DNA of 63,765 nucleotides, counting the filler, from Octopus bimaculoides (Eukaryota): the NCBI RefSeq assembly GCF_001194135.2. It is 6 parts of 5 records of this genome, joined end to end, with 100 filler letters (N's around TTAATTAATTAA, not from the genome) between each part and the next. Parts side by side here need not be neighbours in the genome. Positions count along the whole stretch, not along the records: positions 1 to 23,568 come from NC_068983.1; positions 23,669 to 39,761 come from NC_068987.1; positions 39,862 to 55,761 come from NC_068983.1; positions 55,862 to 58,938 come from NC_068996.1; positions 59,039 to 61,627 come from NC_069009.1; positions 61,728 to 63,765 come from NW_026407690.1. One strand, written 5' to 3'. Shown in pieces: positions 7,915-63,620 of this stretch. The position numbers and the translations under genes are program-made. Under the pieces are notes generated by a model. That model ran no database searches. It worked only from the letters and a program-made list of their open reading frames with translations, and was not told the origin of the DNA. How positions within the stretch are numbered: position 1 is the stretch's first letter; the number at the start of each line of letters is the position of its first letter.

Positions 7915-7996
7915 CTCAGAACGTCCGTGGTATTCATCACTGAGGTGACGAAATCAGATCGAAACATTGTGTCTGGTGATCCACCGACGTTCTGAG
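7915..7996 (+). ncRNA. Near-canonical type I hammerhead ribozyme motif with long stem I
   Basis: TCATCA-CTGAGGT-GA(loop)TC-GAAA-CA(TTG)TG-TC-TGGTGA; GUC site at 7971-7973; stem I continues with ctcagaacgtccgtgg/ccaccgacgttctgag (15 of 16 paired); A9 is T. Confidence 0.65.
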
Positions 7997-8103
7997 CAAA
8001 GCTCTCCTTTAGCACATATGACTCTTTGAGAAGTATTACAGCTGGTGCTGTCCCTAGTTTACATACACATTATAAATGTGTATAAGCAAGGCATGATAAA
8101 ATT

Positions 8104-8288
8104 GATTTCAAAATTTGGCACTAGGCCAGGAATTTCGAGAGAGGCGGGGTTAATCCATAACATTGACCCCGCCCCGTGTTAAACAGGTACTTTCTAAATC
8201 GACCCCCAAAAGATGAAAGGCAATGTCAAGTCGGGAAAAGGCTAAGCATTTTGTCCGGCGTGCCAACAATTTTGCCAGATCGTCGCAA
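8104..8288 (-). mobile_element. Diverged SINE family A copy
   Basis: tttcaaaatttggcactaggccag...atcgacccccaaaagatgaaaggc...ggcgtgccaac. Confidence 0.8.
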
Positions 8289-9034
8289 AGCATAATAATT
8301 TTATAAGGTATAATAAGTTATGATTGTTCTATTTTCCACAATAAAATAACTTCATGCTACAAGGAGAATAAAATATGATTGCTAATATCTACTACAGTAA
8401 TGTTATTTCGTATTACAGTGATAATAAAATAATGATCGCAGCAACATATCCACAGCTTTACAATGAAAATAACACAAAAATAGTTGTATTTTGATAACCA
8501 AAAAAATCTACCTTCATACCACAGAGAAAACAAGCCATGATTGCTGTATTTACTCCCAAAAGCGTTAACTTCACACAACAACGAGAATATGATGCGATTG
8601 CCGTATTTACCAACAATAACACAAGTTTGCATAGCAATGATCGTAATATTTGCTGTATTAAAACAACTTCCTGCAACAATCGATAGCTTATTAGTTTTAT
8701 TTAAAAAAAAAAGCAATCAATAAAATAAATCCAATATCGAACTTCAACACTTTGGATTCTCATCAGAAATCCATTTTGCAAGAACTTCAACAAAACAAAG
8801 AGAGTAGAATAAACAGACAATTTTATCGATTTCCTCCTAAACTTCTGTTACACACGTTTATAATCTTCAAGTGAAGTGACTTGTCACAGACAGCGAGAAT
8901 TTATTCGAGATATGAATGAATATTGTTGCTGTTGTGTTGCTTTGTTCTGCGTTTGTTAGAATAGTCAAAGGAATGTTTAATTAAATAAATTCGTTATTTT
9001 TTATTTTTTTATTTTCCATTTTGATTTTAGATAA

Positions 9035-9316
9035 TTATTTGAAAAACAGTTTACTTAACTCTTCCTTGCTCTCTTTATCAAAATGATATGTATTTAGATC
9101 TTTAGTTCGTTGAAGCTGATACGGATGATGTTCAATTTGTTTATAGCAAGTCTGGCGGGTTGGCAATAGATTCTGAGTGAGTTGCTTTAACCATAGAACT
9201 TCCTCAACGGATCGACGTCCTTTAATTAACTTGTTCACTTCTCTTTCATCTTCAATCAAGATCAATACAAAGCAGCAGTTACCAAAACTTTTACCGTCAC
9301 GACGTGTTTTGGCAAA
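9035..9316 (-). CDS. Candidate coding exon of unknown product
   Basis: 93-codon stop-free frame of complex, non-repetitive composition; no family recognised and no clear splice sites. Confidence 0.2.
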   Translation of the reverse strand, partial: FAKTRRDGKSFGNCCFVLILIEDEREVNKLIKGRRSVEEVLWLKQLTQNLLPTRQTCYKQIEHHPYQLQRTKDLNTYHFDKESKEELSKLFFK

Positions 9317-9964
9317 TCAATAATTACCCGCGAACTTTCACTTTAAAAACAAAATAATATATTATATATATATATATATTTAAAGGATACAATACATGTT
9401 TTTAAGTGCTACTAACAATTTTATATGTACGTTTTTGTTGAATTTTCTATCACGGAAAAGTACATTATATATATATATATATTTAAAGGATACAATACAT
9501 GTTTTTAAGTGCTACTAACAATTTTATATGTACGTTTTTGTTGNNNNNNNNNNNNNNNNNNNNNNNNNNNNNNNNNNNNNNNNNNNNNNNNNNNNNNNNN
9601 NNNNNNNNNNNNNNNNNNNNNNNNNNNNNNNNNNNNNNNNNNNNNNNNNNNNNNNNNNNNNNNNNNNNNNNNNNNNNNNNNNNNNNNNNNNNNNNNNNNN
9701 NNNNNNNNNNNNNNNNNNNNNNNNNNNNNNNNNNNNNNNNNNNNNNNNNNNNNNNNNNNNNNNNNNNNNNNNNNNNNNNNNNNNNNNNNNNNNNNNNNNN
9801 NNNNNNNNNNNNNNNNNNNNNNNNNNNNNNNNNNNNNNNNNNNNNNNNNNNNNNNNNNNNNNNNNNNNNNNNNNNNNNNNNNNNNNNNNNNNNNNNNNNN
9901 NNNNNNNNNNNNNNNNNNNNNNNNNNNNNNNNNNNNNNNNNNNNNNNNNNNNNNNNNNNNNNNN

Positions 9965-10001
<37 letters not shown>

Positions 10002-10214
10002 CATACAGGCCACATTGAATAACTGTCGTCTAATATTCGTATTTGAGTTTCCGGCGCGAATACCAAGCAGTACAACATGTCGTGTGTGTGTGTGTATATA
10101 TATATATCATGAGATTATTGAGTATAATGCTCAGGTGTACAACTCATCAAAGATGCATGTACAGTACATAGAATTATGTACAAAAGTCAGGAAATTGAAC
10201 AGTGTATATGAGTC

Positions 10215-10500
10215 ATAATATACATGTGTGCAGGTTTAGTGTGGTTGAATTTCAGGAAGCATGGAGGTTTTAAAGGATGCAATGTCTCGGCAACTAACAA
10301 CTGATGCTGGTAGTTTATTCCATGCTTCAGCGACTCTGAGTGTGAAAAAATGTTTCCGAAAGTCATGATAGCTGTGCTGCTTTCTGACTTTGGAGACATG
10401 CTCACGTGTCTCAGAATCATTGATCCCAAAAAGGTGCTCAAGGTGGTTGTTGGAATAAAAATAAAGATTCTTCGTGCTATTGAATACATGTACAAACATC
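10215..10500 (-). mobile_element. CR1-group LINE ORF2 C-terminus
   Basis: LEHLFGINDSETREHVSKVRKQHSYHDFRKHFFTLRVAEAWNKLPASVVSCRDIASFK, the typical RKxFFxxRVxxxWNxLP...FK ending. Confidence 0.85.
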
Positions 10501-10539
10501 AACTCAAAGAATACTGGTGGGACATTCCCATTAAAACAT

Positions 10540-10835
10540 CTTTCAAGCGTAAATATAACATACATACATACATGCATGCATACATACATACATACATACC
10601 TACATACATGCATTCATAATACATACATATATACATACATACATTCATAATACATACATACATGCATGCATACATACATAATACATACATGCATACATAC
10701 ATACATACATTCATGATACATACATACATACATAATACATACATGCATACATGCATACATACATTCATAATACACACACACATACATACATACATACATA
10801 CATACATACATACATACATACACTCACACATACAT
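10540..10835. repeat. Compound (CATA)n microsatellite with recurring cattcataata interruptions
   Basis: Seen directly. Confidence 0.9.
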
Positions 10836-11324
10836 GATTGCCTCATCTTGTCAGATGACAGCCATCTCACATTCAGATATGACTAGTGACATACCTGTAC
10901 GTCATTAGATTTTATATGACAAAAGTTTCTACATCACTTTTGCCACTTTCTCGGTCGCCAAAGAAGGTTCCGGATAAAAGCATTGCGAGATGACTGCTAC
11001 TATTTTCACTACAAGTTTTCTGTCTTTTTCCTAAAAGAGCTGCCTTCCTCACGGCTTCGTCAAAAACAACGGAGGCCTCTTCTACTCCTTTGAAATCTGT
11101 TTAACATTCAGACGAGATCCTGACAGGTACTACTGTTTCGGGTCAGAACAGAATTTGGATTAATGGTAATTTGGAGGCGACCCAACTTTCCTAATAACTC
11201 CAGAACTCCCAAACTCGTGCCTCAGAACCGGATGCAGTTTAATGTCATACCAAGAACATACATACACACATACATACATACATACATACATACATACATA
11301 CATACATACATACATACATAAACG

Positions 11325-11647
11325 GAGCAGTCCGTCGGTTACGATGACGAGGGTCCCAGCTGATACGATCAACAGAACACCCTGCTCATGAGATTAACGT
11401 GCAAGTGACTGAGCAATCCAGAGACACGTGTACCTCCAACGTAGTTCTCAGGGAGACTCAGCGTGACACATAGCGTGACAAAGCCGGCCCTTTGAAATAC
11501 AGGTCCTACTCATTTTTGCCAGCTGAGTGAACTGGAGCAACGTGAAATAAAGTGTCTTGCTCAAGGACACAACGCGACGCCGGGAACCGAACTCACGACC
11601 TTACGATCGTGAGACGAATGCCCTAACCACTAAGCCAGCGCCTTCAC
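11325..11647 (-). mobile_element. Full-length CORE-like tRNA-derived SINE (family C) with (TATG)n tail
   Basis: Minus strand: ggcttagtggttagggc (A box), gagttcggttccc (B box), gttgtgtccttgagcaagacactt (CORE-like); tail at about 11260-11320. Confidence 0.85.
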
Positions 11648-12202
11648 ATACATGCATACATGCATACATACATACATACATACATACATACATACATACA
11701 TACATACAGATATGTTATGTGGGACCACAAGGAGAAGGTATGTTTTGTTAGGGAATTCAGCTGTCCTCTGAACGCCAACGTGGTTAAAAAAATACAGGAG
11801 AAAGAGGACATCTATGGACCCTTAATAAGGAGTTTGCTGACCCTTACTGAAGATACACTTTCAGCCTTGTACTTATTATTATTGGAGCAGCGGGATACAT
11901 ACCAACCCGCATGAAGCAAAGTATGGCCGAACTTGGGACCTTATGAGGAGAACGCAAATCCTTAATTCATATGCCACAAATGACCCCGTTATCTAGGATT
12001 ATAAAAATCTTCCCGACCTTAAGATTTAAAGGATGATGAGCAAAATAGGATATTTTTCGGCATAACCTTGCCAACAAGTAGATGACCGATCAAAATTTAC
12101 TCTGAATAAAAAAAAAAGAAAGAGAACATACATACATACATACATACATACATACATACATACATACATACATACATGCATGCATACATACATACATACA
12201 TA

Positions 12203-12625
12203 CCGTAAATCCTCGTGTATAGTCCGCCCTTGAGTATAATACGCAGGGGATTTTTAGGTGGCTGTACCTCTAAAAAACCTAAACCTTGTGTATAATACGC
12301 ACCCTTTCTCTAGGAGTCAAGGAGGTCTATATAACATCATTGGTTTGTAAACATATATACGGTAACGTCCTTTATTATTATTGTATATATAACATAATAC
12401 AAACGTGTAGCTTTTTTGTGCACTTTGTTTGCAGAAAATAAAGAAATAACAGTAATAACGTCAGTGAAAAATAAATATTAAGTAAATTGCCTTTATATAT
12501 TTATCACTTAGAAAATTTTGCTTAGAAAATATTTTAAATTTTTAACCTCGTTTATAGTACGCACTAGAAATTTTGACCTTTAAATTTTGGGGAAAAAAAT
12601 GTGGATTATACTCGAGGATTTACGG
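12203..12625. mobile_element. 423-bp Tc2/pogo-like MITE inserted in a (CATA)n tract
   Basis: TIRs ccgtaaatcctcgtgtatagtcc / ggattatactcgaggatttacgg; TA duplication at 12201-12202 and 12626-12627. Confidence 0.88.
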
Positions 12626-12641
12626 TACATACATACATACA

Positions 12642-12673
<32 letters not shown>

Positions 12674-13142: not shown

Positions 13143-13174
<32 letters not shown>

Positions 13175-13507: not shown

Positions 13508-13560
<53 letters not shown>

Positions 13561-15402: not shown

Positions 15403-15449
15403 TTACAGTCTGATGACGGCAATAAACCGAAACTTCTAAGTCGCTGTAA
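15403..15449 (+). ncRNA. Complete type I hammerhead ribozyme motif
   Basis: TTACAGT-CTGATGA-C-GG(CAATAAA)CC-GAAA-CT(TCTA)AG-TC-GCTGTAA: 7-bp stem I, intact core, 2-bp stem II after one bulged base, 3-bp stem III, GUC site (predicted cut after 15442). Confidence 0.8.
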
Positions 15450-15519
15450 ATGTCTTTGTCACTGTTAATAAATATGTGTTCTATAACAAGTATTGAGTAA
15501 TGTTAACTTGGTTTAGACA

Positions 15520-18580: not shown

Positions 18581-21331
18581 TCGTATCACTACTGCATAAA
18601 TCTCTCTGAGAGATTTAGAAATGTATTATTTCGAAACAAATTTATTGTTGCTGAACTGTTTAAAGTCAGAACTCATGGTCTTGCAAAAACAAAAACAACA
18701 CAATTGGTTTATGAAACGCCGGTCATTTGTTGGTCAGAGCTTAATAATTGTAGAGGGAGTCAAGGTTAAAAATCTACTTGCTATTTTGCCGTTTGTAGAC
18801 TTCACGAAAGTTTTCTGCTCTGACCGAGGTAAAATGGAGCAAATTCTTCATCTATTCAGAGTACACCTAGAAGCAGTATCAGCAGTAATGACGCTCTCCA
18901 AGAACACAAGAGCTAAAGTGTGATCAGCCGATGGAAGCACCCTCTTCAACATCAGTGGAGGCATTTTACAAGGAGATGCGATTGCACCATTTCTATTTGC
19001 CATCTATCTGAACTACGTCCTTCGTACTTCAGTTGACAAAAATAAAAAGTAAGCTTCACTCTCAGAAAACCCTCATCACTTAAAAGACGTAAATTATGCT
19101 CACAGATTTAGCATAAACTGCATCTTTGAGTGTTGTCTCTGCTAACAGAGCAATATAGCAGAAACCTCCTCAGAAGCTAGGCTCTTGCAACATGACTTCG
19201 AGAAAGCGACAGCAGATATTAGATATCAATACCTCAAAAGCTGACTGCATCCGCCATATTCAGGACGTTTCATAACATTCTCTAAATCTATTGACTCGTT
19301 TTATATACAAACTCACATAGAAAGGATGTTAAGCTTCGTCGAGCGAAAGCGTGGGCGATTCTTGATGATTTCAGTGCCATCTTGAATTCCATGCTACCAG
19401 TTGACTTTTAAAGAAGCTTCTTTCGTGCCATGGTAAAATTGATGTTTTTTTTTTACGGATCTACTGCTTCGACATTTGCCGAAAATTTCGACGCAAGTCT
19501 TGATGGCACTTATACTTGTATGTTATAAACTATTTAGAATATCTCGTGAAAAAAGTATCCAACGAAAGTGAAGACAGTATGACAATTTCCTTGCAGTCAC
19601 TGATGTCATTAAAGAGACACGCATGCGTATTGCAATACTTCGCTGGAGGTCATTTGTGATACACTTCATGAAAACCTCATCATGGATATACACGACCAAT
19701 ATATCCACCACTTTATTTAACAATTCCCCTTCCGTGGGAGTCATCGGCGACTCCTCACACTATTTTCTCAATATGGATTAAAATGGGCTTGACAGGCGAA
19801 GTGTTAACCCATTACCTCCCATAATTCTATTAACTGGAATGATCAAAATAACATTTTAAATAGAAATAAGCGAGATATTGGGTGAAAAATTATCAAACCT
19901 CATTTGAATATCAGAGAAATATACCTAGTAGATATAGCAAAAAGGTTAGATATATGTAAATATTGACAGATAATTACGAAATTTGTAATTTTTATGTGAT
20001 CTCATATGAGATCACTGGTAGGTAATGGGTTTAAGATAGAAGACTGTAAATTGAGGGATATTTAGTTGCTATTTCTAGTAGATCACTGTCCATGTAGGTG
20101 TTCCATGGGTTAGTTTGATTGATGTGAGGAAGATTTAATTGTTATTTGTAATAAGTCGTGCAGCCACGTAGGGGATCTTTCGGTAGTTCGAGTTATTTGG
20201 AGATTTGGCTGTTATTTCTAGGACGTCAAAAGACTGTAGAGGCTTTAAGTGTATTGATTAAAACTGTGGAAGTTTGCAACAAAATTTTCAAGAGAAATTT
20301 TATTCTTTAACAATTTCCTGACTTTTTTAAAAATTATGTAAATGTACCGCGGAATGATAAACAAAAAATAATAAAATAAAAATAAAAATAGAAGAATCAC
20401 TTGTAACGTCTGGGAAATTTCCGAGTTGAGAAATCTAGCATTACAGATTCCGTATAACATGCAATTGTAATAAATTTAAAATAGCAAACTACTGCTTATG
20501 AGGTTAAAACAGACACAGTCGTGTCCTATTTACATAAAACAAATTGCAGCCGGAAGTTGGCTGCTTCTCAAAGAAGTCTGAAAAAAACGACTGGGTATAA
20601 TTTTCGTTTTCTTAAGAATTAATCTCCATTTCAATGGCTTTTTGAAAAAAGAAATTCAACAAAATTGCTTAGAAAAGTTGTAATGGTTGTTGCCGAAAAT
20701 TTTACAATCTCATCGTCTCATGTGATGTTCTGCTTATATCAAGGAGTGTATGGCTGTGTTTTGGTTTCCGGTTGAAGCTATTTTAATTCGATTAGGTCAT
20801 TAACGCCTAGGGTAAGAGACGAACTTCAAACAATTATATTTTCCTTAAATCTATAAGTCAGAAAAAACCCTGTGTGTCGGCAAGTAATTTTATTACTTTG
20901 GTGTATTTACAATGACGAAGATATTGGGGTTTGCATTCTTAACAAACCGGACTTGTTTGCTTTTATTTTTTTAAGTTGCTTTTCAGATCCTATTCACGTT
21001 TACTCATGAACACCACAATTTATTTACCATTTCTACGACTTCCTTAAAAAATCTGAAACTTCGTACAAATGTTAGAATATTTATTACATCACCCTCAGTT
21101 CAGAAACCATAGTACACCAATCCTCAACGAATATTAGCTGAGATTTTTAATTCAGGAATCTAAAAACCTTGAACTAAAGAAGAGGATTTCATGAGTCAGC
21201 TTCGACATATGTTGTTGCCGTTATTTTCCCGCCTGATTCTTTTTAATAAGACTATAAAATGTGATATGAGGGACGTTCGGCTGTTATTTCTCATAGGTTG
21301 AACTACCATGTAAAATCTCGGTGTGTTTATC

Positions 21332-21670: not shown

Positions 21671-21760
21671 ATGGAAAGGATAACAAAAGAAAGAGACCTC
21701 GATATTATGTAAATAGAGGAATTTATCTGTAAAAATATGTGACACTTATTCGGTAGCTAT

Positions 21761-21821
21761 AATAAAACTCCGAGTTCCGGATGCCGGGGTGGGAACCCAC
21801 GCCGCCATCTCTTCAGTTATC
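21761..21821 (-). ncRNA. Near-canonical type I hammerhead motif with long stem II
   Basis: Minus strand: GATAA-CTGAAGA-GATGgCGGcGTGGG(TT)CCCACcCCGgCATC-c-GGAA-CT(CGG)AG-TT-TTATT; all three stems pair, but GAAA reads GGAA. Confidence 0.55.
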
Positions 21822-23569: not shown

Positions 23570-23753
23570 NNNNNNNNNNNNNNNNNNNNNNNNNNNNNNN
23601 NNNNNNNNNNNNTTAATTAATTAANNNNNNNNNNNNNNNNNNNNNNNNNNNNNNNNNNNNNNNNNNNNTTGTGTATGTGTAAATATAAATGTGTGTATAT
23701 GATTGTGTATACAAGTTTATGTGAGTGTGCATGTCCACATGTGTATGTATGTG

Positions 23754-23787
<34 letters not shown>

Positions 23788-24196
23788 CACATACATACAC
23801 ATGTGGACATGCACACTCACATAAACTTGTATACACAATCATATACACACATTTATATTTACACATACACAAACATCTAAATGTTTACTTATATTTTTTT
23901 TTAAATAAGAATAAAAATTACATCTACACAAATATGCTCCTATACTTATTCACAAGTACACTCATATTTGAATATATAAACAAACCTATGTTTTAATAAA
24001 TACATTTTTACACAAAAATGTCCATACATCCAAAAAATCATACGTAAATGCATATTTATATATTTAAAAAAAATAATATTGATAAGAGTCAAAACAAGGG
24101 TAAGAGTGAAAATATAAATGATAATGCGTATATGTACACAGAAAAATCAGTTAAAACACTTTTATTTTATACAAAACCCTAAATATGTATACACAG

Positions 24197-24639: not shown

Positions 24640-25990
24640 ACACATGAAGTAGGTGTACATGACATCAAGCAGGCGTGATATCAAATGCATGATAAATAAT
24701 GCTCAGAGAATGAGACTCTGTAGACATTCTGCTCTTGTTGCACATGAACACCCCGGTCTGAACATTCATAATGCTTACCTCAGTGAAGTCTGTTTTCCTG
24801 TGTTCATTGTGCAGCGAGACTGGGACACTTTTCATACTAATTTGCTGCTTTCTTAAACCGGTCATAGGGAAACTTTAAAACTATTTTCAGTGTCAATCGC
24901 TAATTCCAAGTCTCAGCAGAGCTTCATGTCTCACAGCAGCAATCGAAGTCAGAACAGGACGGAATATCTTCCCTCGCAGGTACGACCAAAGGCATAGAAC
25001 AACTGAAATGTGGAAAGGAAATATATCAGTGGACAAAATGAAACGTAGCGCTGCATTCTAAACTCAGTGAGATTTTTGTCTGCTCCTGGTAGCAAGGCAA
25101 GATACCAAGCATTTCTGCGATGCAAGCTTCATCATCCTGTGTTAGAGTAAGGAAGAAAAGTCTGACTGACCCAACTGCAGGAGGATTTTGAAGAAAAGAT
25201 CCAGGGCGCTCCGCATTGCTCACCATTCAAGTCGAAAATGTTCCAGAATACCACCACAGCTTCAGAGCAAATGGGATTACAGCTCCAAGGAAAGAGAGAG
25301 GAAAAGACAAATGCCTTTCAATCACCATTGTCAACCTTGTCAACCAATTATGTAAGCAGAAAAGGCATATGGAAAATAATACACTGTTTGGGATGTCACC
25401 ACCCATCAACGATCATTAAGCAGGCTTTGCTCAGATAGGTGTGAAGAACCCACCAAGCCCTTTCCCATTGGAAACGGTGTGAATGAAGATTGTGTCCTCA
25501 AGCCAACTCTTCACAACACCACTCTTCGGTATGATACTCAAGCAGGCCACTGAAGACCACGATGATGAAGATGGCATCTACATTCAGTACCGTACACTTC
25601 AATTTGAAGCGCCAGCTGTCACACATCAAAACACTGGAACAAGTCCTCAATGGATTACACTTTTGAAGACGATGCTACTCTTTTCTCCCACACAGAAACA
25701 GCCCTGCACCGGATCCATTCACGATTAGCAGATGCTGCTCAGCATTTTGACGGAGGAAAAAGCTTAATGAAAACAGAAGTCCTCCGGGCAACAGCGTCAT
25801 TCGCAGATACCCGCAGGGCTATGCTTAAAGGAGCAAAAACATGGTCGCTACTATTTACGTTGTATGCGTACCTTATCATGCAGCCTAAGCGGTCATGCCT
25901 GTTTATTCGGAATTGGACATGTCAGACATCATCAAACCTGCAACGTATATGGACATCCTCTTCCGTAGACTGTTTCTGACAACGGTAGAA
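24640..25990 (+). mobile_element. Degenerate, internally deleted BovB-like RTE LINE
   Basis: Endonuclease start RHSALVAHEHPGLNIHNAYLSEVCFP; RT pieces DEDGIYIQYRT and FEDDATLFSHTETALHRIHSRLADAAQHF...KTEVL; many stops and frameshifts. Confidence 0.8.
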
Positions 25991-31311: not shown

Positions 31312-32564
31312 NNNNNNNNNNNNNNNNNNNNNNNNNNNNNNNNNNNNNNNNNNNNNNNNNNNNNNNNNNNNNNNNNNNNNNNNNNNNNNNNNNNNNNNNN
31401 NNNNNNNNNNNNNNNNNNNNNNNNNNNNNNNNNNNNNNNNNNNNNNNNNNNNNNNNNNNNNNNNNNNNNNNNNNNNNNNNNNNNNNNNNNNNNNNNNNNN
31501 NNNNNNNNNNNNNNNNNNNNNNNNNATATATATATATATATATAAAGAAACCGATGACCAATGGTATTGCAGGTTTAAGCAAGCAAGACTATATTAACTT
31601 GAAGCTTACCTTTCAGTATTACAAATATTACTATATATCTTAAGACTATTTTCTAAGAATAACGATCAAATACAGAGATGTCTAATTTTCCACCTCATAC
31701 AATTTCAATGCAGAACGGGTATCTGTGAATTGAAACTATAACGTATATATATAAACGTATTTTATATAATCACTTCTTAGCACTTTACCTGGCACCAACA
31801 TGAACTGCTTTTAAGTTAGAAAATTAGAAAATTACGATTACTCTTAAGTTGTAGACGAAAAGTAACTCTAGAAACTTGTGATCGATGTTTCTCAGCGACT
31901 GTTATTTTGCATAGTTTTTTAATGATATTTTAATGAACACTGATTGGTTAATTTTCAAAAGCAATGCTTATTTTCGTGTTCGATGTTATTATACGTAGTC
32001 TAGTGCAATAGAAGTTTTAACAATCTATTCAATTGGAGATTTAAATCTAATTTAGCATATTTGAAGAACTTGCATTAAATTGGGAAGGGAAATATCTACA
32101 GATATTTCATTATGAATTTGCTTAGTTGAATAAATCAACCTGAGTTCATAGTTTTAAAGCGTAGGAGTTATTCTATTTGTCTCTTTTGTAGAACCATTAT
32201 GTGACAATGACGTAAACAAACCAACGCTGCTTGTCACGCGTTAGTGTGGGACAAACACACGCCCAGAGACACAAATGTAGATATATATTGCGTATATATA
32301 TATATATACGAGTTTGCGTATGTGTGTATACACCCCCCCCCACACAGAGTTTAGTTCACAGTATAGTTCACAGGTGATCTAAACGATTAGGTACGCTAGG
32401 TAAGTGCTGTAACGGATTACTGGTGCTCCAAGGTTATAGCCGAGACGGTAGTTACGGAGCCATTGCAGATTTCCTATGCAACGGATATATAATTGTTAAA
32501 CAGGACATCAAACATTAAGGCAAGGCAAGTAACATAGAATGTTATTACGGGAAGAAATTGAAAA

Positions 32565-32618
32565 TCTTACAGCTGTTTCTGGGATATCCTTCAGTATGGG
32601 ATATTCCTTCATTAGAGA
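32565..32618 (-). ncRNA. Degenerate minimal hammerhead motif (Penelope-type) with internal duplication
   Basis: Minus strand: TCT-CTAATGA-aggaatatcccatactgaaggatatccca-GAAA-CAGCTG-TA-AGA; palindromic stem III ACAGCTGT. Confidence 0.45.
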
Positions 32619-34680: not shown

Positions 34681-34733
34681 GTTTGAGCTTTCAAGGCTCA
34701 AAGACCTTGAAGTTTTGTACCTTCATCAGAATT
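34681..34733 (-). ncRNA. Degenerate minimal hammerhead motif
   Basis: Minus strand: CTGATGA-AGG...CCTT-GAAA-GC-TC; palindromic AGCT stem III; weak stem I. Confidence 0.35.
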
Positions 34734-38959: not shown

Positions 38960-39595
38960 AGCAAAGAAGAAATTTTGAACAAATGGGCTGATTACTTTAA
39001 ATCTGTATCACATAAAAAACCCACTACTGAACCTGTGGTAATCAACGAATATTTCCGAGGCCTATAATTGAGAAACTTGCTAAGATACGGCTATTAAAAT
39101 ATGCTGCAATGTCAAACCTCTTGGACAAAATGGTGTTTCCAAAGAAGTGTATGAATATGGTGGTACACAACTTGTAAGAAATCAGCTCATATTGATATGT
39201 TTGATCTGGTAAACTGGATCTCTTCCGCAGCAATTCAAATATGTATCTATAATGCTCTTGTACAAAAACAAGTGAAGCAATATGTATGTGATAATCACAG
39301 GAGCAGAAGTTTGTTGCACATATCTGGAAAATATTTTCCGACGGTCATCGTTGACCGCATCAATAAACACGTAATAAACAGCATTTATCCTGAATCCCAA
39401 CGCGGATTTCCGACTGGGAGAGGCATAGCTTACACGAGATTTACCCTTCAACAAATTCAAGTAAAAGTTCGTGAAGAAAATATTGGCTTGTACACGGTCT
39501 TTGTTGGCTTGTCAACACGATTGATACAGTGAATCGGAAGGTGCTCTGGAAAATGTTGTGAAAATTTGGTTTTCCTGATAATGTCTTTGAATGGG
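38960..39595 (+). mobile_element. BovB-like RT fragment
   Basis: CDNHRSRSLLHISGK...IYPESQRGFPTGRG...QQIQVKVREENIGLYTVFVGL, then VNRKVLWKML*KFGFP. Confidence 0.82.
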
Positions 39596-41454: not shown

Positions 41455-41705
41455 TATCGTTGCCAGTGCCGCCGAACTGGCTCCTCTGCAGGTGGCATGT
41501 AAAATACACCATTTTGAGCATGGCTGTTGCCAGTACCGCCTGACTGGCCTTCGTGCCGGTGGCACGTAAAAGCACCCACTACACTCTCGGAGTGGTTGGC
41601 GTTAGGAAGGGCATCCAGCTGTAGAAACTCTGCCAAATCAGATTGGAGCCTGGTGTAGCCATCTGGTTTCACCAGTCCTCAGTCAAATCGTCCAACCCAT
41701 GCTAG
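41455..41705 (+). mobile_element. 5'-truncated RTE-X-like LINE 3' UTR copy
   Basis: ggcacgtaaaagcacccactacactctc...ttaggaagggcatccagctgtagaaac...tccaacccatgc; matches the 3' UTR at 56475-57090. Confidence 0.85.
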
Positions 41706-53864: not shown

Positions 53865-54305
53865 CAGGGCCATCTCAGCACCATTACAGGACCCAGAGCA
53901 AATAAATGCACTGGGCCCTAAAGCATTTATTTATCGACAGTAAGTTATAAAATAGCATAGAATTAGGCCCCTAGACCCTTGAGGTGGCCCCTGGGTAACT
54001 GGCAGTGTGCTCATATTTTAAGACAGCCTTGGTTACTCAGCTGATTGGCATACTGTCACTAATTAATACTCTCTTACCTCTGGTCTACAGACACACTGCC
54101 AGCTGCCCAGGGGCCTTATGACTCTAGGGGCCTTATGACTCTAGGGGCCTTATGACTCTAGGGGCCTTATGACTCTAGGGGCCTTATGACTCTAGGGGCC
54201 CAATTCTGATCTATGTACTCTGTAGTATACTGCCAATAAACAAATACTATAGAGCCCAGTGTACTGATTTGCCCAGGGCCCTATAATGGCGCTAAGACAG
54301 CCCTG
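53865..54305. mobile_element. Inverted pair of hAT-like MITEs (53865-54031 plus, about 54090-54305 minus)
   Basis: Termini cagggccatctcag / ttaagacagccttg; reverse complement of the 54305 end reads cagggctgtcttagcgccattatagggccctgggcaaat; imperfect 8-bp flanks ggttctca / gttactca. Confidence 0.65.
54110..54200. repeat. 17-bp minisatellite GGGGCCTTATGACTCTA, 5 copies plus a partial
   Basis: Perfect copies with no spacers. Confidence 0.95.
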
Positions 54306-56459: not shown

Positions 56460-56474
56460 CACATATATGTATGT

Positions 56475-58065
56475 ATCATCATCATCGTTTAACGTCCACT
56501 TTCCATGCTGGCATGGGTTGGACGGTTTGACTGGGGACTGGCAAGACAGGAGGCTGCACCAGGCCCCAATTTCTATCTGGAAATGTTTTTACAGCTTGAT
56601 ACTTCCTAACGTCAACCACACCGAGAGTGTAATGGGTGCTTTTTATGTGGCACTGGCAGTTGGACGGCACATTCGGATGATACTTTTTACGTGCCACCAG
56701 TAGAGGAGCCAGTTGGGCAGGGCTGGGATGGACTGGCATCGACCACATGGGGATTGGTGCTTTTTATGTGCACAGGAGCCAGTCGGATGGGGGGGCTGGC
56801 ATCGACCACATTCCAATGGTGCTTTTTACATGTCACTGGCACAGGGAGCTAGTCAAGCGGCACTGGCATTGACCTTGACTTGAATGATGTTTATTACATG
56901 CCACCTGCACAGACGGCTTTGGCATCGACCACAACTACAATTTCCATTTTCATTTCGATCTTGATTTGATTTTGATTTTACTTGACTCAATAGGTCTTCT
57001 CAAGCACCACGTATTGCCCAATGATTCAAGGGCACTTTTAAAATGGGCTGGTTATGCCACACTGGTATAGGCTACATCTGTGATCTTACCTTACTTGCCT
57101 GGTCTTCTCAATCACAGCATATCTCCAAAGATTTCGGTCACTTTTGTCATTGCCTCTGTGAGACCCAACATTCGAAGGTCGTGCCTCACTACCTCATCCC
57201 ATGTGTTCCTGGGTCTTCCTCTTCCACAGCTTCCTTCCACTGTTAGAGTGTGACACTTCTTCACACTGCTCTCCTCATCTATACGCAGCACATGATGATA
57301 CCAGCGCGGTCATCTCTATTGTACACTACATTTGATGCTTTTTATGTCCAACATTTCTCTCAGGGTGCTTACACTCTGTTGTGTGTGCACACTGACATTA
57401 CACATCCAGTGTATCATACTAGCTTCATTTCTTTCAAGCCTACATATATCCTCAACAGTCTTTGCCCATGTTTCACTGCTGTGTAGCATGGCTGTTCGTA
57501 CTCATGCTTCATGCATTCTACCTTTCATTCTGAGTGAGAGGCCCTTTGTTACCAGCAGAGGTAGGAGCTTTATGAACTTTGCCCAGGCTATACTTATTCT
57601 AGTGGCAACACTCTCAGAGCATCCACCCCCACTACAGACTTGGTCAGTTAGTTAGCAGAAGCTATCAACTACTTCTAGTTTCTCCCCCTGGCATGTGATA
57701 GAATCTGTTTTCTGAACAGCTTCAATGTTTATTTGCCTCTGTCATCTGCCGCGTACAAAAACTATCATCTTGGTTAACCTTCCTTTGATATTGCTGCACC
57801 TCTTATGTGTCCATGGCTTACACTAGGTACATCTTGTGGAGTTTCTACCTTCACCTTTTCTACAGATTGAGCCGAGCCATCTACCTGAAGGGGTTTGTGA
57901 TTTGTCCACTTTCCTATTTACTAGGACTTCGGTTTTTGTTACGTTGACTCTAAAGCCCTTCGATTTTAGACCTTGCTTCCACACCTGAAATTTCTTCTCT
58001 AGTTCTGGTAGTGATTCAGCTTTGAGAGTAAGCTCATCAGCATAGAGAAGTAGAGAAGCAATGTA
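56475..58065 (-). mobile_element. 5'-truncated RTE-X-like LINE: RT end, Cys-rich segment, C-terminus, repeat-containing 3' UTR and (ATG)n tail
   Basis: LLYADELTLKAESLPELEKKFQVWKQGLKSKGFRVNVTKTEVL...SICRKGEGRNSTRCT; then WTHKRCS, RIRIAWAKF and GRGRPRNTWDEVVRHDL; several stops. Confidence 0.88.
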
Positions 58066-58160
58066 TATATGTGTATATCTATNNNNNNNNNNATATATAT
58101 ACACACACATATATATATATGTATGTATATATAAGAGGGTATTGTAGTTCACTTGAAACA

Positions 58161-58440
58161 TATAATATAAAAAATGGACTATATATTTGTTGTAATTTAG
58201 TTTTCTATAGTCCGATATTTCGGAATACAATTCCTTCTTCAGATCTTCTTAGATGGAGTCTATGCTATCAACTGTTTACCAACGGCTTTAGTAAAGCTTT
58301 AGTAAAGCCGTTAGTAAACAGTTTATAGCATAGACTCCATCTAAGAAGATCCGAAGAAGGAATTGTATTTTGTATTCCGAAATATCGGACTATAGAAAAC
58401 TAAATTACAACAAATATATAGTCCATCTTTTTATATTATA
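58161..58440. mobile_element. 280-bp spacerless palindrome carrying two outward-facing hammerhead-like motifs (Penelope pLTR-like)
   Basis: Arms mirror about aaagcttt (58293-58300). Minus 58242-58214: CTGAAGA-A-GGAAT(TGT)ATTCC-GAAA-TA-TC. Plus 58351-58386: same motif with U4C and a small duplication. Confidence 0.75.
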
Positions 58441-58483
58441 GTGCATTGTTGTACCATTCAAAACCTTTTATTCTTTATGTATG

Positions 58484-58518
<35 letters not shown>

Positions 58519-58581
58519 TTACACATTTATATGTATGTATATATATGTTTACACATATATGTACGTATATATATATATATA

Positions 58582-59099
58582 TGTAGTGAAACTACCTCTA
58601 TCACCATTAAATACAAACAACCTTTCTCACTAGTATATATATTCAAGTGCGGGCGTAGCAGAGAGCAGCTTGCTGTGTCATCACCTGACTGACTATTCTT
58701 TGCGCGGGTAAATTATCTCCACCCGTTCGCCCCAGGACGCAAATCGACCAACCATAGCCCCTAATAAGGTCACGTGAGAGTGTTCTTCTGATGCTTCTCT
58801 GGAGCCTTCCTTCAGCTATAAATAGCCTAAATTATCCCCGCCAATTCGTCGCGGCTCAGATCTTAGATCTGGTCGTTCTGACCACACACGCGTAACACAG
58901 CACCAACCAGCCAGCCAGTTTCCAGCGACGACATCAACNNNNNNNNNNNNNNNNNNNNNNNNNNNNNNNNNNNNNNNNNNNNTTAATTAATTAANNNNNN
59001 NNNNNNNNNNNNNNNNNNNNNNNNNNNNNNNNNNNNNNGCATCACATCTAAATGCTACATCATATCGACCTGATATGGCATGTCCCTTCAGCCACTACA
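58582..59099 (+). mobile_element. Probable solo LTR (Gypsy-like), interrupted by a gap
   Basis: Starts TGTAGTG, ends CACTACA; flanks TATA/TACA; internal CpG-rich segment with gtcacgtgag, TATAAATA (about 58817) and ccccgcc. Confidence 0.7.
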
Positions 59100-59254
59100 T
59101 ACATACTACTGAGACACTATTTTACAGCCAGAAAGCTTTCCCACTGCTAACAGTTACCAGTATTTTAACTGAGGGTGTTTCCACTCTTCAAAAACACAGA
59201 GCTATTAGATGATTTGTTGACAGGGAAATGTCAACATTCACACACAAACATGTG

Positions 59255-59295
<41 letters not shown>

Positions 59296-59734
59296 ACTAG
59301 GATATTGTAATGGATGTGATGTGCAAGGGTGTGTGCTGCTGTGGTCATGTGATGCAGGCAGATGAGGACAGCTGTATAAAGAAGTAATAACTGCTAAATG
59401 TAGAAGGAACATGTGGGAAAAGGAAACCAAATAAGATGCAGGATGAAGTGGTAAAAATTGATCTCAAAATGTTGAATCTCTCAGAGATGGCAGGGGACCA
59501 AGAAAAATGGCAATATGCTGTTCTTGAGAAAACTCGTCCATCTCAGTAAAATTGAATTTCTGTCAAGCCTTGCAGTATTTTATTTCTTTGCTTCACTTCC
59601 CCTCTGGTACTTATTCTATTTATGTATTTCATGAACGACTAAGTTATGGTGTTGCAAACAAACCAACACTGGTTGTCAAGTAGTGGTGGTGGTGGGAATT
59701 ATCAATAGCAAACAAAATGACACATTATAAATAT

Positions 59735-60100
59735 TATATATGTGGCTGTGTGGTAAGAAGCTTGGTTCTGGGTTCAGTCCCACTGCATGGCACATTAGGC
59801 GAGTGTCTTCTACTACAACCATACACTGACCAAAGTCTTGTGAATGGATTTGGTAAATGGTGACTGAAAGAAGCCTGTTGTATACGTATATACATATATA
59901 TATATACATATATATATATATATTATATATATGGACATGTATATATCTATGTATCATGTGTCTTTGTATCTGTTTGTCCCCACCCCCACCCCCACTTGAC
60001 AACTGGTGTAGGTGTGCTTACAACCCTGTAACTTAGTGGCTTAGCAAAACTGACTGATAGAATAAGTATCAGACTTTCAATAAAATAAGTCCTGGAGTTG
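59735..60100 (+). mobile_element. Full-length diverged SINE family B
   Basis: gtggctgtgtggtaagaagctt...gggttcagtcccactgc...gataga ataagta...aaaataagtcctggagttgac. Confidence 0.85.
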
Positions 60101-60123
60101 ACTATATATATATATATATATAT

Positions 60124-60356
60124 ATAATCTTAAAATAAAGAAAAAAACACAAATCTTGTAAATACAGCCACCCAGGATTTCCTTGTTGAAATAATAATTT
60201 ATTCTGCTATTTATCAAGCTGAAAACAAATCTATTTGTCAGTTGTCTTTTGAGGTCTTGTTTTCAGCTTGATAAATGGCAGAATAAATTATTATTTCGAC
60301 AAGGAAATCCTGAGTAGCTGTATTTACAAAATTTGTGGTTTTTATTATAAGATTAT
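60124..60356. mobile_element. Foldback/MITE-like hairpin, about 105-bp arms and 28-bp spacer
   Basis: caggatttccttgttgaaataataatttattctgctatttatcaagctgaaaacaa pairs with ttgttttcagcttgataaatggcagaataaattattatttcgacaaggaaatcctg. Confidence 0.85.
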
Positions 60357-61072
60357 TTTCACTTTCTTAACCAATCGAATGCTTTTCTACTTGTTGAAGC
60401 ATTAACGCATAATATGTGTGTGTGTGTGTATATATATATATATGCATACCATACCACCTGTGAGAACTGAATAGGTGACCTCAAATCAATAGGAACCACA
60501 ACAATACTAACCACTCCAAAACATTCCATTCCTTTATTCTTGATAGACTTAACTCTTCTCTCCACTGTTCTCAATTACTATAAGTCTTATCTTTATTTTT
60601 ATTCATTTTTCTTTATTTCATTTACTTTTTTCCTCTTCTTCTTTGCCTTCTCTCTTCCTTCCTCTAGTTGCTGTTCTTCTTCACACATGCGTTTGTATTT
60701 TTTATATATATATTGCTTGTTTCATTGTTGTTGTTGACACTTACCATATGCAGAGCTAAACTAAAAAATTTTCTCTGTTTTAATCACTTCATTCATTCAC
60801 CTAACCCATAATATTAACATAATATTAACATAATATTAACATGTACTATTCCCTAAAACCTTAATTTTCTCTCCGTTTCATAATGTTTTGTCATTGTTCT
60901 CTAGTAAAAATGGTCATTGCTTGTGCACAATGCACCCACCCACTTCCACCTCCACCACTTATACTGGAAATCTATCCTCAATACCAAAACCCCGTACAGG
61001 GCTCTGCTTTGCTTCTGTACCTGAACTCTTGCATACCTTTGTTCCCACTTCCCTGCCACCAATAATTGCCCA

Positions 61073-61267
61073 CCATGCCGGTGGCACGTAAAAGCACCCA
61101 CTACACTCGCGGAGTGGTTGACGTTAGGAAGGGCATCCAGCTGTAGAAACTCTGCCAAATCAGATTGGAGCCTGGTGTCGCCTCCTGGTCCACCAGTCCT
61201 CAGTCAAATCGTCCAACCCATGCTAGCATGAAAAGCGGACGTTAAACGACGATGATGATGATGATGA
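61073..61267 (+). mobile_element. Young RTE-X-like 3' UTR copy with (ATG)n tail
   Basis: Nearly identical to about 52430-52612. Confidence 0.9.
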
Positions 61268-61291
61268 CCACTGCATGCACCAAAAGGTGAT

Positions 61292-61627
61292 ATGTTACTT
61301 AGTAAAATATTAGTATCAATTAAGAGTATGAAGACCGGGAAAGCCCCCGGCCCATCAGGAATCACTGCAGAGATTCTCAAAATATCTGGCAGTGTTGGCT
61401 ATAGCCTAGTCACCCGTATTACGAACCAGGTGATACACGAAGGAGTCATACCCAATGACTGGTGTAGCAGCATCATAGTCAACTGCTACAAAGGTAAAGG
61501 TGACGCTTTAGATACAAATAATTACAGAGGCATCAAGCTGTTAGATCAGGTTATGAAAGTTACAGAGAGGGTCATAGCCCAACTAATTAGGGAGCGAATC
61601 AATTTAGATGAGATGCAGTTTGGGTTC
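61292..61627 (+). mobile_element. Open RTE-X-like RT N-terminal fragment running into a gap
   Basis: SIKSMKTGKAPGPSGITAEILK...IPNDWCSSIIVNCYKGKGDALDTNNYRGIKLLDQVMKVTERV...DEMQFGF with no stops. Confidence 0.92.
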
Positions 61628-61795
61628 NNNNNNNNNNNNNNNNNNNNNNNNNNNNNNNNNNNNNNNNNNNNTTAATTAATTAANNNNNNNNNNNNNNNNN
61701 NNNNNNNNNNNNNNNNNNNNNNNNNNNTGTATGTATGTATGTATGTATGTATGGGTGTATGTATGTATGTATATGTAGCTACAGGATTTGTCGAG

Positions 61796-62218
61796 TATAT
61801 AAACAGATTGGTTACATGTCACTCTGGAATTGGTCAAATTGATGTAGACGTCTCTGATGAGAATCCAATAAGATTCCCAAAATCGATTCAGTTTGTTCAT
61901 CATTTTCCCAATCTACGGAGAAACAGGTAAATTAGCCCTGTTTATGAAGGTACTTTATAGGTTGCATATTCTTGATAATGTGTGGACTAAGATCTTCGTT
62001 GATAGGCCCTTGATATTTAAAATAAAGTGTTAAACACGATATGCAAATTAGTAGCTCCAGTTTTCTATAACTACTTTAATTGTTGAGAATATAAAACGTA
62101 TTGGCTGCTTTTCTCTCTGGGATTGGTCGAATTGATACTGACGCCTCTGATGAGAATCCAATAATATTCGAAAACCCATTAAGGTTGTTCATCATTTTCT
62201 CAATCTAAAGACAAACAG
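61796..62218 (+). repeat. Direct repeat (period about 293 bp), each copy with a hammerhead-like core
   Basis: ctctgatgagaatccaataa...gttcatcatttt at 61852 and 62145; copy 2 has CTGATGA-GAAT...ATTC-GAAA. Confidence 0.6.
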
Positions 62219-62236
62219 CTGTGTGTGTGTGTTATA

Positions 62237-62450
62237 CGAGGAAGTGCTGAAAAGATCCTGGCTTTGAGTAAAAGAAAATACAAGAGAATCAGTTAATTAT
62301 GATTTTATTCAACATATTCCCCTCTCAGAATCACACACTTTTTGCAGCAGTCTTTCAGTTTTCTCTAAGCTTTGTGAAAGAACTCGGAAGGTTGGGCCTC
62401 CAACCAGACTTTTCGCGACACCTTTAAAGCGAAGATCTTGTCAGTATATT
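62237..62450. mobile_element. Mariner-type MITE, right end degenerate
   Basis: TA|CGAGGaagtgctgaaaagatcctggc left terminus. Confidence 0.5.
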
Positions 62451-63005
62451 GAATTCTAGCACTAGATTATTAATATTCGTGTGTGTGTGTGTGTGTGTNN
62501 NNNNNNNNNNNNNNNNNNNNNNNNNNNNNNNNNNNNNNNNNNNNNNNNNNNNNNNNNNNNNNNNNNNNNNNNNNNNNNNNNNNNNNNNNNNNNNNNNNNN
62601 NNNNNNNNNNNNNNNNNNNNNNNNNNNNNNNNNNNNNNNNNNNNNNNNNNNNNNNNNNNNNNNNNNNNNNNNNNNNNNNNNNNNNNNNNNNNNNNNNNNN
62701 NNNNNNNNNNNNNNNNNNNNNNNNNNNNNNNNNNNNNNNNNNNNNNNNNNNNNNNNNNNNNNNNNNNNNNNNNNNNNNNNNNNNNNNNNNNNNNNNNNNN
62801 NNNNNNNNNNNNNNNNNNNNNNNNNNNNNNNNNNNNNNNNNNNNNNNNNNNNNNNNNNNNNNNNNNNNNNNNNNNNNNNNNNNNNNNNNNNNNNNNNNNN
62901 NNNNNNNNNNNNNNNNNNNNNNNNNNNNNNNNNNNNNNNNNNNNNNNNNNNNNNNNNNNNNNNNNNNNNNNNNNNNNNNNNNNNNNNNNNNNNNNNNNNN
63001 NNNNN

Positions 63006-63057
<52 letters not shown>

Positions 63058-63580
63058 CGTGCATACGTAATTCTGTGTACTTAGCTATTCTATGCTTTTA
63101 TTCTGTGAGATTTATTAATCTCGTTATTTCCTTCTCCCACGCTTCATTATGAATACCTCATAGCTACTAATTGTAGTGTTTATCCCACTATATTCAACAA
63201 ACCTATGTATTTTGGACTATAAGGAATCCGTTTGATCTTGGCTCGTTGTTTCCATAGAGCCACAAGTCAATTAATTGTAAATTCATGATAAATGTCGGAT
63301 TCGCTAACACACATTAATGTGGCCAACGCGAGACCTTTAATCAATCGAGATCTGTATCGAGATGAGGTAAACATTGCTGAACAATGCTTAAATCAACCAA
63401 ATGAAGGCAAGAGTGACAACTCGAAATAATATTATACGATTTATTTATGAAATAGATTCACGCACCAGAAAGCGTTCATCGATTTCAATTTATAAAATTG
63501 TGATTAAAAGCTGGAGAAAGGGAATTTGGTATGGGTTTGGGAAAACAATCACCTGGCATTCTACAGACATGTTGAAAATT

Positions 63581-63620
63581 GTGGGTACGTTTCGGCCTTA
63601 TTAGACCTCCTCAGCGATGC
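63581..63620 (-). ncRNA. Minimal type I hammerhead core (Penelope-type)
   Basis: Minus strand: CTGAGGA-GGTCT(AATA)AGGCC-GAAA-CG-TA; intact core, 5-bp stem II, palindromic ACGT stem III, GUA site; only 1 bp of stem I. Confidence 0.6.

Follow-up and report, generated by a model that had tools for sequence, protein, structure and literature searches.

Damaged type I hammerhead motifs in a 64-kb window of the Octopus bimaculoides genome, likely remains of old Penelope-like retroelements

Ten sites with the core words of a hammerhead ribozyme are scattered along the 63,765 nucleotides of Octopus bimaculoides DNA analyzed here (the window), which raises the question of what left them there and whether any of them still cuts RNA. 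An earlier note had read them as a diverse set of non-autonomous hammerhead retroelements whose intact copies, if the region is intronic, could cut host pre-mRNA. In the current study, we find that some seven distinct type I hammerhead motifs in the window, each of them damaged, are real as a set, and we consider it likely, with a probability of roughly three in four, that they stem from old Penelope-like retroelements (PLEs) and from short, non-coding, PLE-derived tandem units and no longer cut.

Structured motifs, their chance level and their damage

The ten sites of the earlier note occupy ranks 1 to 10 in the window under a structure-aware log-odds scanner for type I hammerheads, which was devised after the sites were known and is biased toward them. 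The scores are 29.3 at 15410, 26.7 at 32615, 25.7 at 63614, 24.3 at 21816, 24.1 at 62147, 21.9 at both 7940 and 61854, 19.4 at 34729, 18.7 at 58242 and 14.7 at 58351. Against 60 local shuffles, the window holds seven sites scoring at least 20 (0.10 expected) and nine scoring at least 18 (0.33 expected). Because the top scores of the reversed window are 19.6 and 18.0, 34729, 58242 and 58351 are insecure on score alone. The comparison with dinucleotide-shuffled controls that had been proposed distinguishes the structured motifs from the bare CTGANGA word, which is not enriched (23 occurrences vs 21.5 +/- 4.4 in 100 local dinucleotide shuffles). A core combined with a helix II closed by G10.1-C11.1 and an exact GAAA occurs three times (58242, 62147 and 63614) against a mean of 0.05 over 100 shuffles, none of which holds more than 1. 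Relaxed to 4 pairs and a single mismatch, the pattern occurs five times against 0.4 (maximum 2, 40 shuffles), and the strict descriptor of this analysis finds two against 0.05 in shuffles.

Seven of the eight loci hold up; 34729 is doubtful, its score being matched by the reversed window. With 7 loci in 56,837 called bases, the density is roughly one for every 8 kb, near the one per 9 kb proposed earlier; 6,928 bases in 27 gaps (11% of the window) are N, and three of these gaps lie close to motifs. The positions given before were right within 2 bases, with the core placed at 32613 beginning at 32615. The loci are also unrelated, as had been claimed, at the level of detection, where blastn and nhmmer link only 58242 with 58351 and 61854 with 62147. 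Cross-links between 7861-7916 and 15446-15508 (z about 7) and between 8766 and 62147 (z about 4) were not significant window-wide by nhmmer, and neither the kinship of 7940 with 15410 nor that of 62147 with 8766 or 1401-1511 reached significance. Other CTGANGA sites were rejected as hammerheads at 7683, 19173 and 58040, the last of which lies inside an RVT_1 stretch, and at 41682, 52558 and 61203, where the word is SINE-borne. Site 19173 falls in an apparent LINE reverse transcriptase remnant (judged by eye), and pieces of SINEs and LINEs are abundant throughout the window.

Every copy in the window looks decayed. That the sites have clean CUGANGA...GAAA...UH cores was not confirmed: the core is changed at five of the ten sites (A9 to U at 7940, G5 to A at 32615, U4 to C at 58351, and within GAAA at 61854 and 21816) and helices are damaged elsewhere: a helix I of 3 pairs is absent at 58242 and 63614, helix II at 15410 has 2 Watson-Crick pairs only, and the usual helix III is lost at 62147. 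None of the ten passes the published descriptor of minimal hammerheads (min-HHRs), an RNAmotif pattern (helix I 3-7, helix II 3-7, loop 3-10, GAAANNUH) that we re-implemented from Fig. S7 of PMC4209133. Failure of this descriptor alone is no proof of decay: of 120 loci in a control PLE family, just 3 pass, on account of a single mismatch in the family's helix II. The Rfam search suggested earlier (Hammerhead_1, RF00163; HH9; HH10), carried out on the window, yielded nothing at gathering score. The best result, from targeted scans, was a sub-threshold Hammerhead_1 match at one of the ten sites, 7934-7979, which covers the whole 45-position model and scores 26.7 bits against a gathering score of 34 (E 7.9e-4 for 1.8 kb). 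These scans gave no Hammerhead_1 match at E up to 10 for the remaining nine sites, HH9 and HH10 had no match in whole-window or targeted scans, and the best 150 of 206 whole-window Rfam matches at E up to 1 include no hammerhead and are dominated by microsatellites matching miRNA models. Minimum-free-energy folds at 7940, 15410 and 58242 did not yield the hammerhead shape. Beyond the demands of the descriptor, the min-HHR consensus of PMC4209133 has an extra base after A9, G10.1-C11.1 and a palindromic 15.2-16.2. The extra base is present at 15410, 32615 and 58242 and the palindrome at 58242, 63614 and 32615; all three features are found at 58242/58351 and two or three of them at 32615, 63614 and 15410.

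Layouts of the individual loci

The motifs are arranged as two partial tandems of about 300 bp, one head-to-head inverted pair and four solitary motifs. The first tandem (7634-8090, plus strand) has a period of about 260-320 bp. The body of its roughly 300-bp unit (7786-8090) belongs to a dispersed family and carries a type I hammerhead relic at 7915-7997 (core motif 7934-7979), in which helix II is mostly unpaired and which sits, by folding, in a long helix I extension with 11 perfect outer pairs. Its tandem partner at 7634-7785 is older and more decayed, with the hammerhead core deleted; the alignment of this partner with 7896-8088 reaches a z of about 10 and an nhmmer E of 0.012 (best null 0.035), and contig joints at the tandem run from 8003 to 7690, from 8005 to 7688 and from 8085 to 7790. 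Outside data covered 7515-9355 only, and dispersal was examined at two of nine candidate loci (7940 and 8766). Summed contig depth over bins 7763-8010 is 11-37 times the single-contig level in three organisms, a value that is not a copy number, and contigs from other loci cover 7905-8003, 7909-7996 and 7916-8000 with 14-15 differences each. Relatives of the unit at other loci in the three organisms are about 85% alike (12-23 differences in 80-106 bases), with none closer among the contigs listed. As single contigs of organisms B and C traverse 7651-8268 and 8242-9354, the locus predates the split of B and C from organism A. Between close species, 7515-9355 is about 5-7% diverged and exhibits no sign of special conservation. 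A standard RNA-seq run, sampled to 6% (1,934 million letters) and of a library kind that can lose small circles, had no reads over 7763-8072, 8321-8630 or 8755-8940; SINEs neighboring these stretches have read depths in the hundreds in the same library. The RNA ends that had been suggested as evidence of cutting were likewise absent at the cut sites of 7940 and 8766 in this part-sampled library, which has no reads there.

A possible further hammerhead, very decayed, unproven and absent from the earlier list, lies at 8722-8777 (minus strand). It has 16 identical bases in common with 61854/62147, a score of 12.4 (4.6 expected per window), an nhmmer E of 0.45 and a depth at the single-copy level, and the contig comparison yielded no relatives at 80%. 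The second tandem is the direct pair 61854/62147 (plus strand, period 293), in which 61775-61927 and 62066-62219 are about 81% identical. The first copy (61847-61897) has a canonical-type short helix II with a 6-base loop and a damaged GAAA; the second (62140-62189) has an intact core, a helix II of 4 pairs and a decayed helix III, and the direct repeat ends about 30 bp past it. The inverted repeat at 58161-58440, with arms 92% identical, holds two divergent minimal motifs 109 bp apart, a layout that recurs in a control Penelope family, where 7 of 120 loci have divergent motifs 28-144 bp apart. One arm (58207-58242, minus strand) combines a consensus core and a palindromic UA with a broken helix I, and the other (58351-58393, plus strand) carries, besides its core change, a 7-base duplication in loop II.

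The best-preserved motif is solitary and lies at 15403-15449 (plus strand), with a full core, a GUC site, a helix I of 7 pairs and a short helix III; its score was reached in none of 60 shuffles, and it passes the strict descriptor of this analysis. The motif at 21754-21820 (minus strand) has a long GC-rich helix II, a damaged GAAA and a stable helix III, and lies within a 159-bp island that has a (TA)n tract on either side; an N gap of 625 bases is 185 bp away. A Penelope-type motif at 32562-32618 (minus strand), 70 bp from a 408-base N gap, has a long helix II, a palindromic helix III and a helix I of 3 pairs, while the minimal motif at 63585-63615 (minus strand) has an intact core, a helix II of 4 pairs, a 6-base loop and a palindromic CG, with helix I lost. 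The doubtful candidate at 34683-34731 (minus strand; 0.15 expected per window at its score) has the core words with weak helices and fails both the strict descriptor of this analysis and the published one.

Origin of the motifs

According to Cervera and de la Pena 2014 (PMC4209133), min-HHRs sit in the pseudo-LTRs of metazoan PLEs, many variable solitary min-HHRs without a nearby ORF are the norm, being left by truncated Penelope copies, and opposite-strand pairs occur 100-700 bp apart. The motifs of the window have much in common with these: type I, the extra base after A9, G10.1-C11.1, a short helix I, a helix III that is palindromic or missing, a large number of seemingly unrelated families in one genome, copies that mostly stand alone and apart from any ORF, and opposite-strand pairs. 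They differ in failing that paper's descriptor and in the absence of a PLE ORF from what was found in the window. The long helix I extension of the 7940 family is absent from the paper's alignment, which includes no cephalopod and has Lottia and Crassostrea as its molluscs. With the animal non-LTR retrozymes of Cervera and de la Pena 2020 (PMC7229834), the window shares non-coding, low-GC units of about 300 bp (7940 unit, 61854/62147) that each bear a single canonical-type type I motif and occur either as dimers or as lone monomers. Such tandem units are present at 7634-8090 and 61775-62219, the other five loci not being tandem, and the dispersed multi-copy habit is seen for the 7940 unit. Unlike retrozymes, the window has partial dimers only, 81% or less alike; unlike an active retrozyme as outlined in a preprint (Li, Clavereau, Pollet 2026, 10.64898/2026.07.22.740005), the first copy is deleted at 7680 and the GAAA at 61854 is damaged. 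Neither linear nor circular RNA of the 7940 unit was seen in the sampled 6% of the RNA-seq run. Amniote intronic hammerheads (HH9, HH10) are type I as well, but the window has no match to their models, 7515-9355 shows no sign of special conservation, and no host gene was found.

These features suggest the following origin. PLE enzymes supplied from another place in the genome, a reverse transcriptase and a GIY-YIG endonuclease, would have copied RNA bearing a hammerhead terminal repeat; within this parent RNA, the motif would have been cutting either in dimeric form or assisted by protein. Most insertions would have been cut short, leaving the terminal repeat alone (15410, 21816, 32615, 63614), some would have kept an inverted copy (58242/58351), and at the 7940 unit and 61854/62147 a partial tandem of roughly 300 bp would have remained, an arrangement termed non-LTR retrozyme; the inserted copies would then have decayed through point changes, small indels and later insertions into their presumably inactive present state. 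Truncated copies in partial tandem or inverted form, a PLE trait, are indeed found (58161-58440 and the two partial tandems), non-LTR retrozymes are derived from PLE terminal repeats according to the 2026 preprint, and the expansion of PLEs in octopus at a Jukes-Cantor distance of about 0.2 (PMC13282606) fits the divergence of the copies here.

The inferred link to PLEs rests on motif shape and layout rather than on homology to PLEs, because no PLE coding remnant was found. Pfam detected none in 300 of 343 stop-free stretches of at least 48 aa, nor in 60 read-through frames of 10 motif-flanking segments, and an HMM of 44 PLE proteins, a Poseidon-type profile only, gave a best whole-window score of 0.9 bits, equal to the null. 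Within the scope of these searches (Pfam and the Poseidon-type profile in a window of which 11% is N), the earlier observation that there is no Penelope ORF stands. No ORF with reverse transcriptase and GIY-YIG was found beside a motif-bearing repeat in the window; one reverse transcriptase fragment alone lies close to a motif, at 57826-58080 (RVT_1 of Pfam, E 7e-6), and the PLE profile does not match it. A suspected PLE coding relic at 19500-20700 was not supported: it had one phmmer match, to a 141-aa protein from a 532-bp contig that has no Pfam family and is unlike PLE, and the opposite strand gave no match at E up to 10. Target-site duplications were not found at three of the four elements checked, the match at the fourth being a microsatellite. 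Among viral contigs, scanning for the min-HHR pattern turned up one structured motif in 120 loci and no reverse transcriptase.

That the motifs are real and had another carrier, such as a satellite, a SINE, a LINE end or an endonuclease-less Athena/Terminon-type element, is unlikely. The lack of any PLE ORF remnant found in the window, its richness in SINE and LINE pieces, and a min-HHR family that PMC4209133 shows within a large tandem repeat of a fly would be consistent with such a carrier, but no motif overlaps the interspersed repeats from self-comparison of the window, and both the inverted pair and the partial tandems are arranged in the manner of PLEs. It is quite improbable that the elements are live and able to cut host pre-mRNA. 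Several distinct families within 57 kb, the two tandem loci, the whole core and 7-pair helix I of 15410, the dispersal of the 7940 family and the 30 recently active Penelope families reported from Octopus vulgaris (PMC13282606) all speak in its favor. However, no site passes the min-HHR descriptor, neither tandem has the two complete motifs by which the preprint recognizes an active retrozyme, relatives of 7940 among the contigs listed come no closer than about 85%, RNA reads are lacking over the three stretches in 6% of one run, Pfam on the 300 of 343 stop-free stretches found no host exon in the window, and single min-HHRs gave no cleavage in vitro (PMC4209133). The view of the earlier note survives in that the motifs are type I hammerheads of Penelope or retrozyme kind in several families, one of them dispersed, but non-autonomous elements in their own right are unsupported because truncated PLEs leave solitary ORF-less min-HHRs and only two loci are tandem. 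Its suggestion that intact copies in introns could cut host pre-mRNA finds nothing in favor, with no descriptor-intact copy, no host exon found and no reads over the unique parts of 7515-9355 in one part-sampled library. Chance matches in AT-rich DNA as the source of most sites are very improbable: the unenriched CTGANGA word, the nine sites without Rfam match and the 19.6 of the reversed window under a scanner tuned after the fact make this reading plausible for 34729 and 8766, but for the seven loci it is already largely refuted by the excess over shuffles (3 vs 0.05, 2 vs 0.05, 7 vs 0.10), by the 7940 motif, which recurs with its two arms at other loci of three organisms, and by the duplicated copies at 58242/58351 and 61854/62147.

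Hammerhead relics in cephalopod genomes

The pattern in the window is an ordinary one, in print since 2014 and known from many other animals, in possibly a new host group; the present case, which matters little as it stands, adds one more animal genome to what was described in 2014 and 2020. No report of cephalopod hammerheads was found in the literature outside subscription papers and their supplements, and two cephalopod repeat papers, PMC13282606 among them, lack the words "ribozyme" and "hammerhead" in their main text; because no such report was found, a genome-wide cephalopod catalog might be new. We put forward as a tentative and rather doubtful extension that, if one relic per 8 kb were to hold genome-wide, this genome's decayed hammerheads, of many families and uncataloged in cephalopods, would number roughly 100,000 or more, and some young relatives of 15410 or 21816, or the long-armed 7940 family, may still cut RNA and make circles. 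If true, such a number would far exceed what has been published for other animals with strict descriptors. The pattern would gain in importance only with young, cleaving copies inside transcribed genes. Hammerhead relics serve as a marker of old Penelope-type insertions that have left no coding trace and that repeat annotation usually leaves unclassified.

Hammerhead motifs against chance expectation

It is evident that the ten hammerhead cores listed in the earlier note, at eight loci (7940, 15410, 21816, 32615, 34729, 58242/58351, 61854/62147 and 63614), were accurately sited, and enrichment emerges once structure is demanded; seven loci hold and 34729 is doubtful. The bare CTGANGA word is unenriched across the window (23 sites versus 21.5 +/- 4.4 in 100 local dinucleotide shuffles), whereas a strict type I descriptor finds two sites versus two in total over 40 shuffles, and core, helix II and exact GAAA together occur three times versus 0.05 expected from shuffles. 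Allowing one mismatch in the type I descriptor leaves a weaker excess (5 versus about 1.2, 40 shuffles). With a log-odds scanner, written only after the sites were known, the ten sites take ranks 1-10 in the window, seven scoring at least 20 (0.10 expected, 60 shuffles) and nine at least 18 (0.33 expected, 60 shuffles); 40 loci of a control Penelope family, Poseidon-type Penelope-like elements (PLEs) from outside the window, mostly score 23-35. The doubt over 34729 (score 19.4) arises because the reversed window attains 19.6. Sites 58242 and 58351 score 18.7 and 14.7, and this pair is supported by its layout and published-consensus match more than by score. Spread over the called bases, the seven upheld loci stand 8.1 kb apart on average, a spacing that comes from one window chosen for hammerheads and cannot serve as a genome-wide density.

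The description of these loci as unrelated is likewise borne out at detection level, the only clear kin being 58242/58351 (an inverted pair, 92% alike) and 61854/62147 (a direct pair, 81% alike across some 150 bp, with a period of 293). An older partner of the 7940 motif, at 7634-7785, has its hammerhead core deleted. A weak flank link between 7940 and 15410, and another between 62147 and an additional decayed candidate at 8766 (8722..8777, -), both failed a window-wide search. In the 293-bp pair the second copy stops at about 62220, and the stretch that follows, 62230-62440, resembles one end of a DNA transposon of the mariner type.

Decay of the motifs and search for Penelope coding sequence

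An Rfam scan of the kind proposed in the earlier note did return a sub-threshold signal, although no site in the whole window attained the gathering score: in targeted scans over all ten sites, the sole Hammerhead_1 match, at 7934-7979, reached 26.7 bits versus 34. Similarly, none of the ten sites passes our re-implementation of the published minimal-hammerhead (min-HHR) descriptor (PMC4209133), which is a harsh standard, as 3 of the 120 control Penelope loci pass and failures are mostly a single helix II mismatch. The commonest control motifs retain both core and helix I, whereas in the window the core is changed at five sites, helix I is absent at two, helix II has two pairs at one and helix III is lost at one. 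Of the ten, 15410 has survived best. Hammerhead cleavage is abolished by core changes of the G5-to-A kind.

At 58207-58270 (-) and its mirror 58325-58393 (+), helix I is broken beside the core, and bases farther upstream could pair with the post-cut strand if a 12-base hairpin, in which the start of the core is imperfectly duplicated, is looped out. This arrangement could reflect either an additional stem in a variant of the family or damage confined to this site.

The earlier note also held that no Penelope ORF is present, and none was found with Pfam, a Poseidon-type HMM or tblastn, with gaps lying near 21816, 32615 and 61854 (27 gaps, totalling 6,928 N bases, occur in the window). Among 300 of 343 stop-free stretches, Pfam recognized only RVT_1 at 57826-58080 (-), a LINE reverse-transcriptase remnant, and for 60 read-through frames flanking the motifs it returned nothing but weak, unrelated matches. 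The HMM, built from 44 of 120 fetched PLE proteins, reached at best 0.9 bits in the window, the same as in the reversed window, and tblastn with PLE proteins found no match there. A PLE coding relic suspected by eye at 19500-20700 was set aside for want of tool support. Within it, 19780-20250 (-) looks by eye like the decayed remains of a GIY-YIG domain from a PLE clade other than Poseidon; neither the Poseidon-type HMM nor an opposite-strand search returned anything for this region, and an antisense-looking match to it (P0121, E 2.2e-4) suggests that related DNA is present elsewhere. A metagenome record (L152:721-2256, -) carries a nearly whole Poseidon-type PLE, with reverse-transcriptase and endonuclease pieces and its min-HHR, and served as a control only.

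The motifs lie in AT-rich animal DNA that gives 99 rows of tandem repeats and contains numerous SINE and LINE pieces, and whose repeats appear octopus-like. By eye, further stretches are presumably LINE reverse-transcriptase remnants lacking a Pfam match (61268-61627, 39155-39529, 25608-25976 and 18600-19760, all +), and by eye these and the remnant at 57826-58080 appear to be RTE-type. A perfect 128-bp palindrome around a (TA)n tract (23707-23834) is the source of the top spurious miRNA matches, and a perfect 17-bp tandem array of 5.4 copies lies at 54109-54200.

The 7940 locus in outside sequence and RNA

Comparison with outside data covered 7515-9355, and hence one of the eight loci (7940) plus the 8766 candidate. 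Single-contig depth there was 18.9, 16.1 and 43.9 in runs from organisms A, B and C. Over 7763-8010, summed depth, which does not equal copy number, rises to 11-37 times this level, and distinct contigs align there that differ at 12-23 of 80-106 bases, some spanning both long arms of the 7940 motif. Contig joints (8003 to 7690, 8005 to 7688, 8085 to 7790) are consistent with a repeat unit some 300-320 bp long. At the 8766 candidate, depth is that of a single contig or close to it. Both B and C supplied contigs that cross 7651-8268, with 44-45 differences, and 8242-9354, with 51-53; the locus is therefore older than their split, and as a whole it exhibits no special conservation in these contigs.

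In one RNA run (1,934 million letters, 6% of the run), no reads covered 7763-8072, 8321-8630 or 8755-8940, whereas neighbouring SINE bins in the same library reached depths in the hundreds. This is weak evidence against expression, from one partly read library. With no reads over the motif, that library had no pile-up of read ends at the cut sites, and over 7515-9355 it gives no evidence for the intron in which intact copies had been imagined to cut a host transcript. Adjoining the decayed tandem partner of 7940, 7577-7646 is a small fragment of a repeat with a very high copy number; its summed depth exceeds baseline more than 10,000-fold in three organisms, and RNA reads cover it to a depth of about 170 per strand.

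Probable affinities with Penelope-like elements and retrozymes

Metazoan genomes are described as harboring thousands of highly variable, mostly solitary min-HHRs each, probably derived from truncated PLEs and sometimes paired on opposite strands (PMC4209133), and the window exhibits the same pattern. Cleavage by a single motif was undetectable in that account. The divergent layout of 58242/58351 recurs at 7 of 120 control Penelope loci and is also a described layout of PLE insertions (10.1101/2021.04.23.441226). The window's two partial tandems fit non-LTR retrozymes as described (PMC7229834). A 2026 preprint derives such retrozymes from PLE terminal repeats and reports them as under-represented in introns (10.64898/2026.07.22.740005). 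For a lizard PLE hammerhead, cleavage reportedly required the element's own protein, left no read ends in RNA-seq, and the motif was dispensable for insertion in vitro (PMC11167929). In O. vulgaris, a PLE expansion is dated to a distance of 0.2 (PMC13282606), near the divergence seen here, a comparison that applies only if the DNA is from an octopus.

The earlier note saw the motifs accurately but over-read them: they belong among hammerheads as a decayed set, no site in the window reaches the gathering score of the Rfam family, and neither an active retrozyme nor a PLE with an ORF was found there. The motifs are probably, at roughly three chances in four, relics of PLE terminal repeats together with PLE-derived retrozyme units, a link drawn from shape and layout and not from homology.
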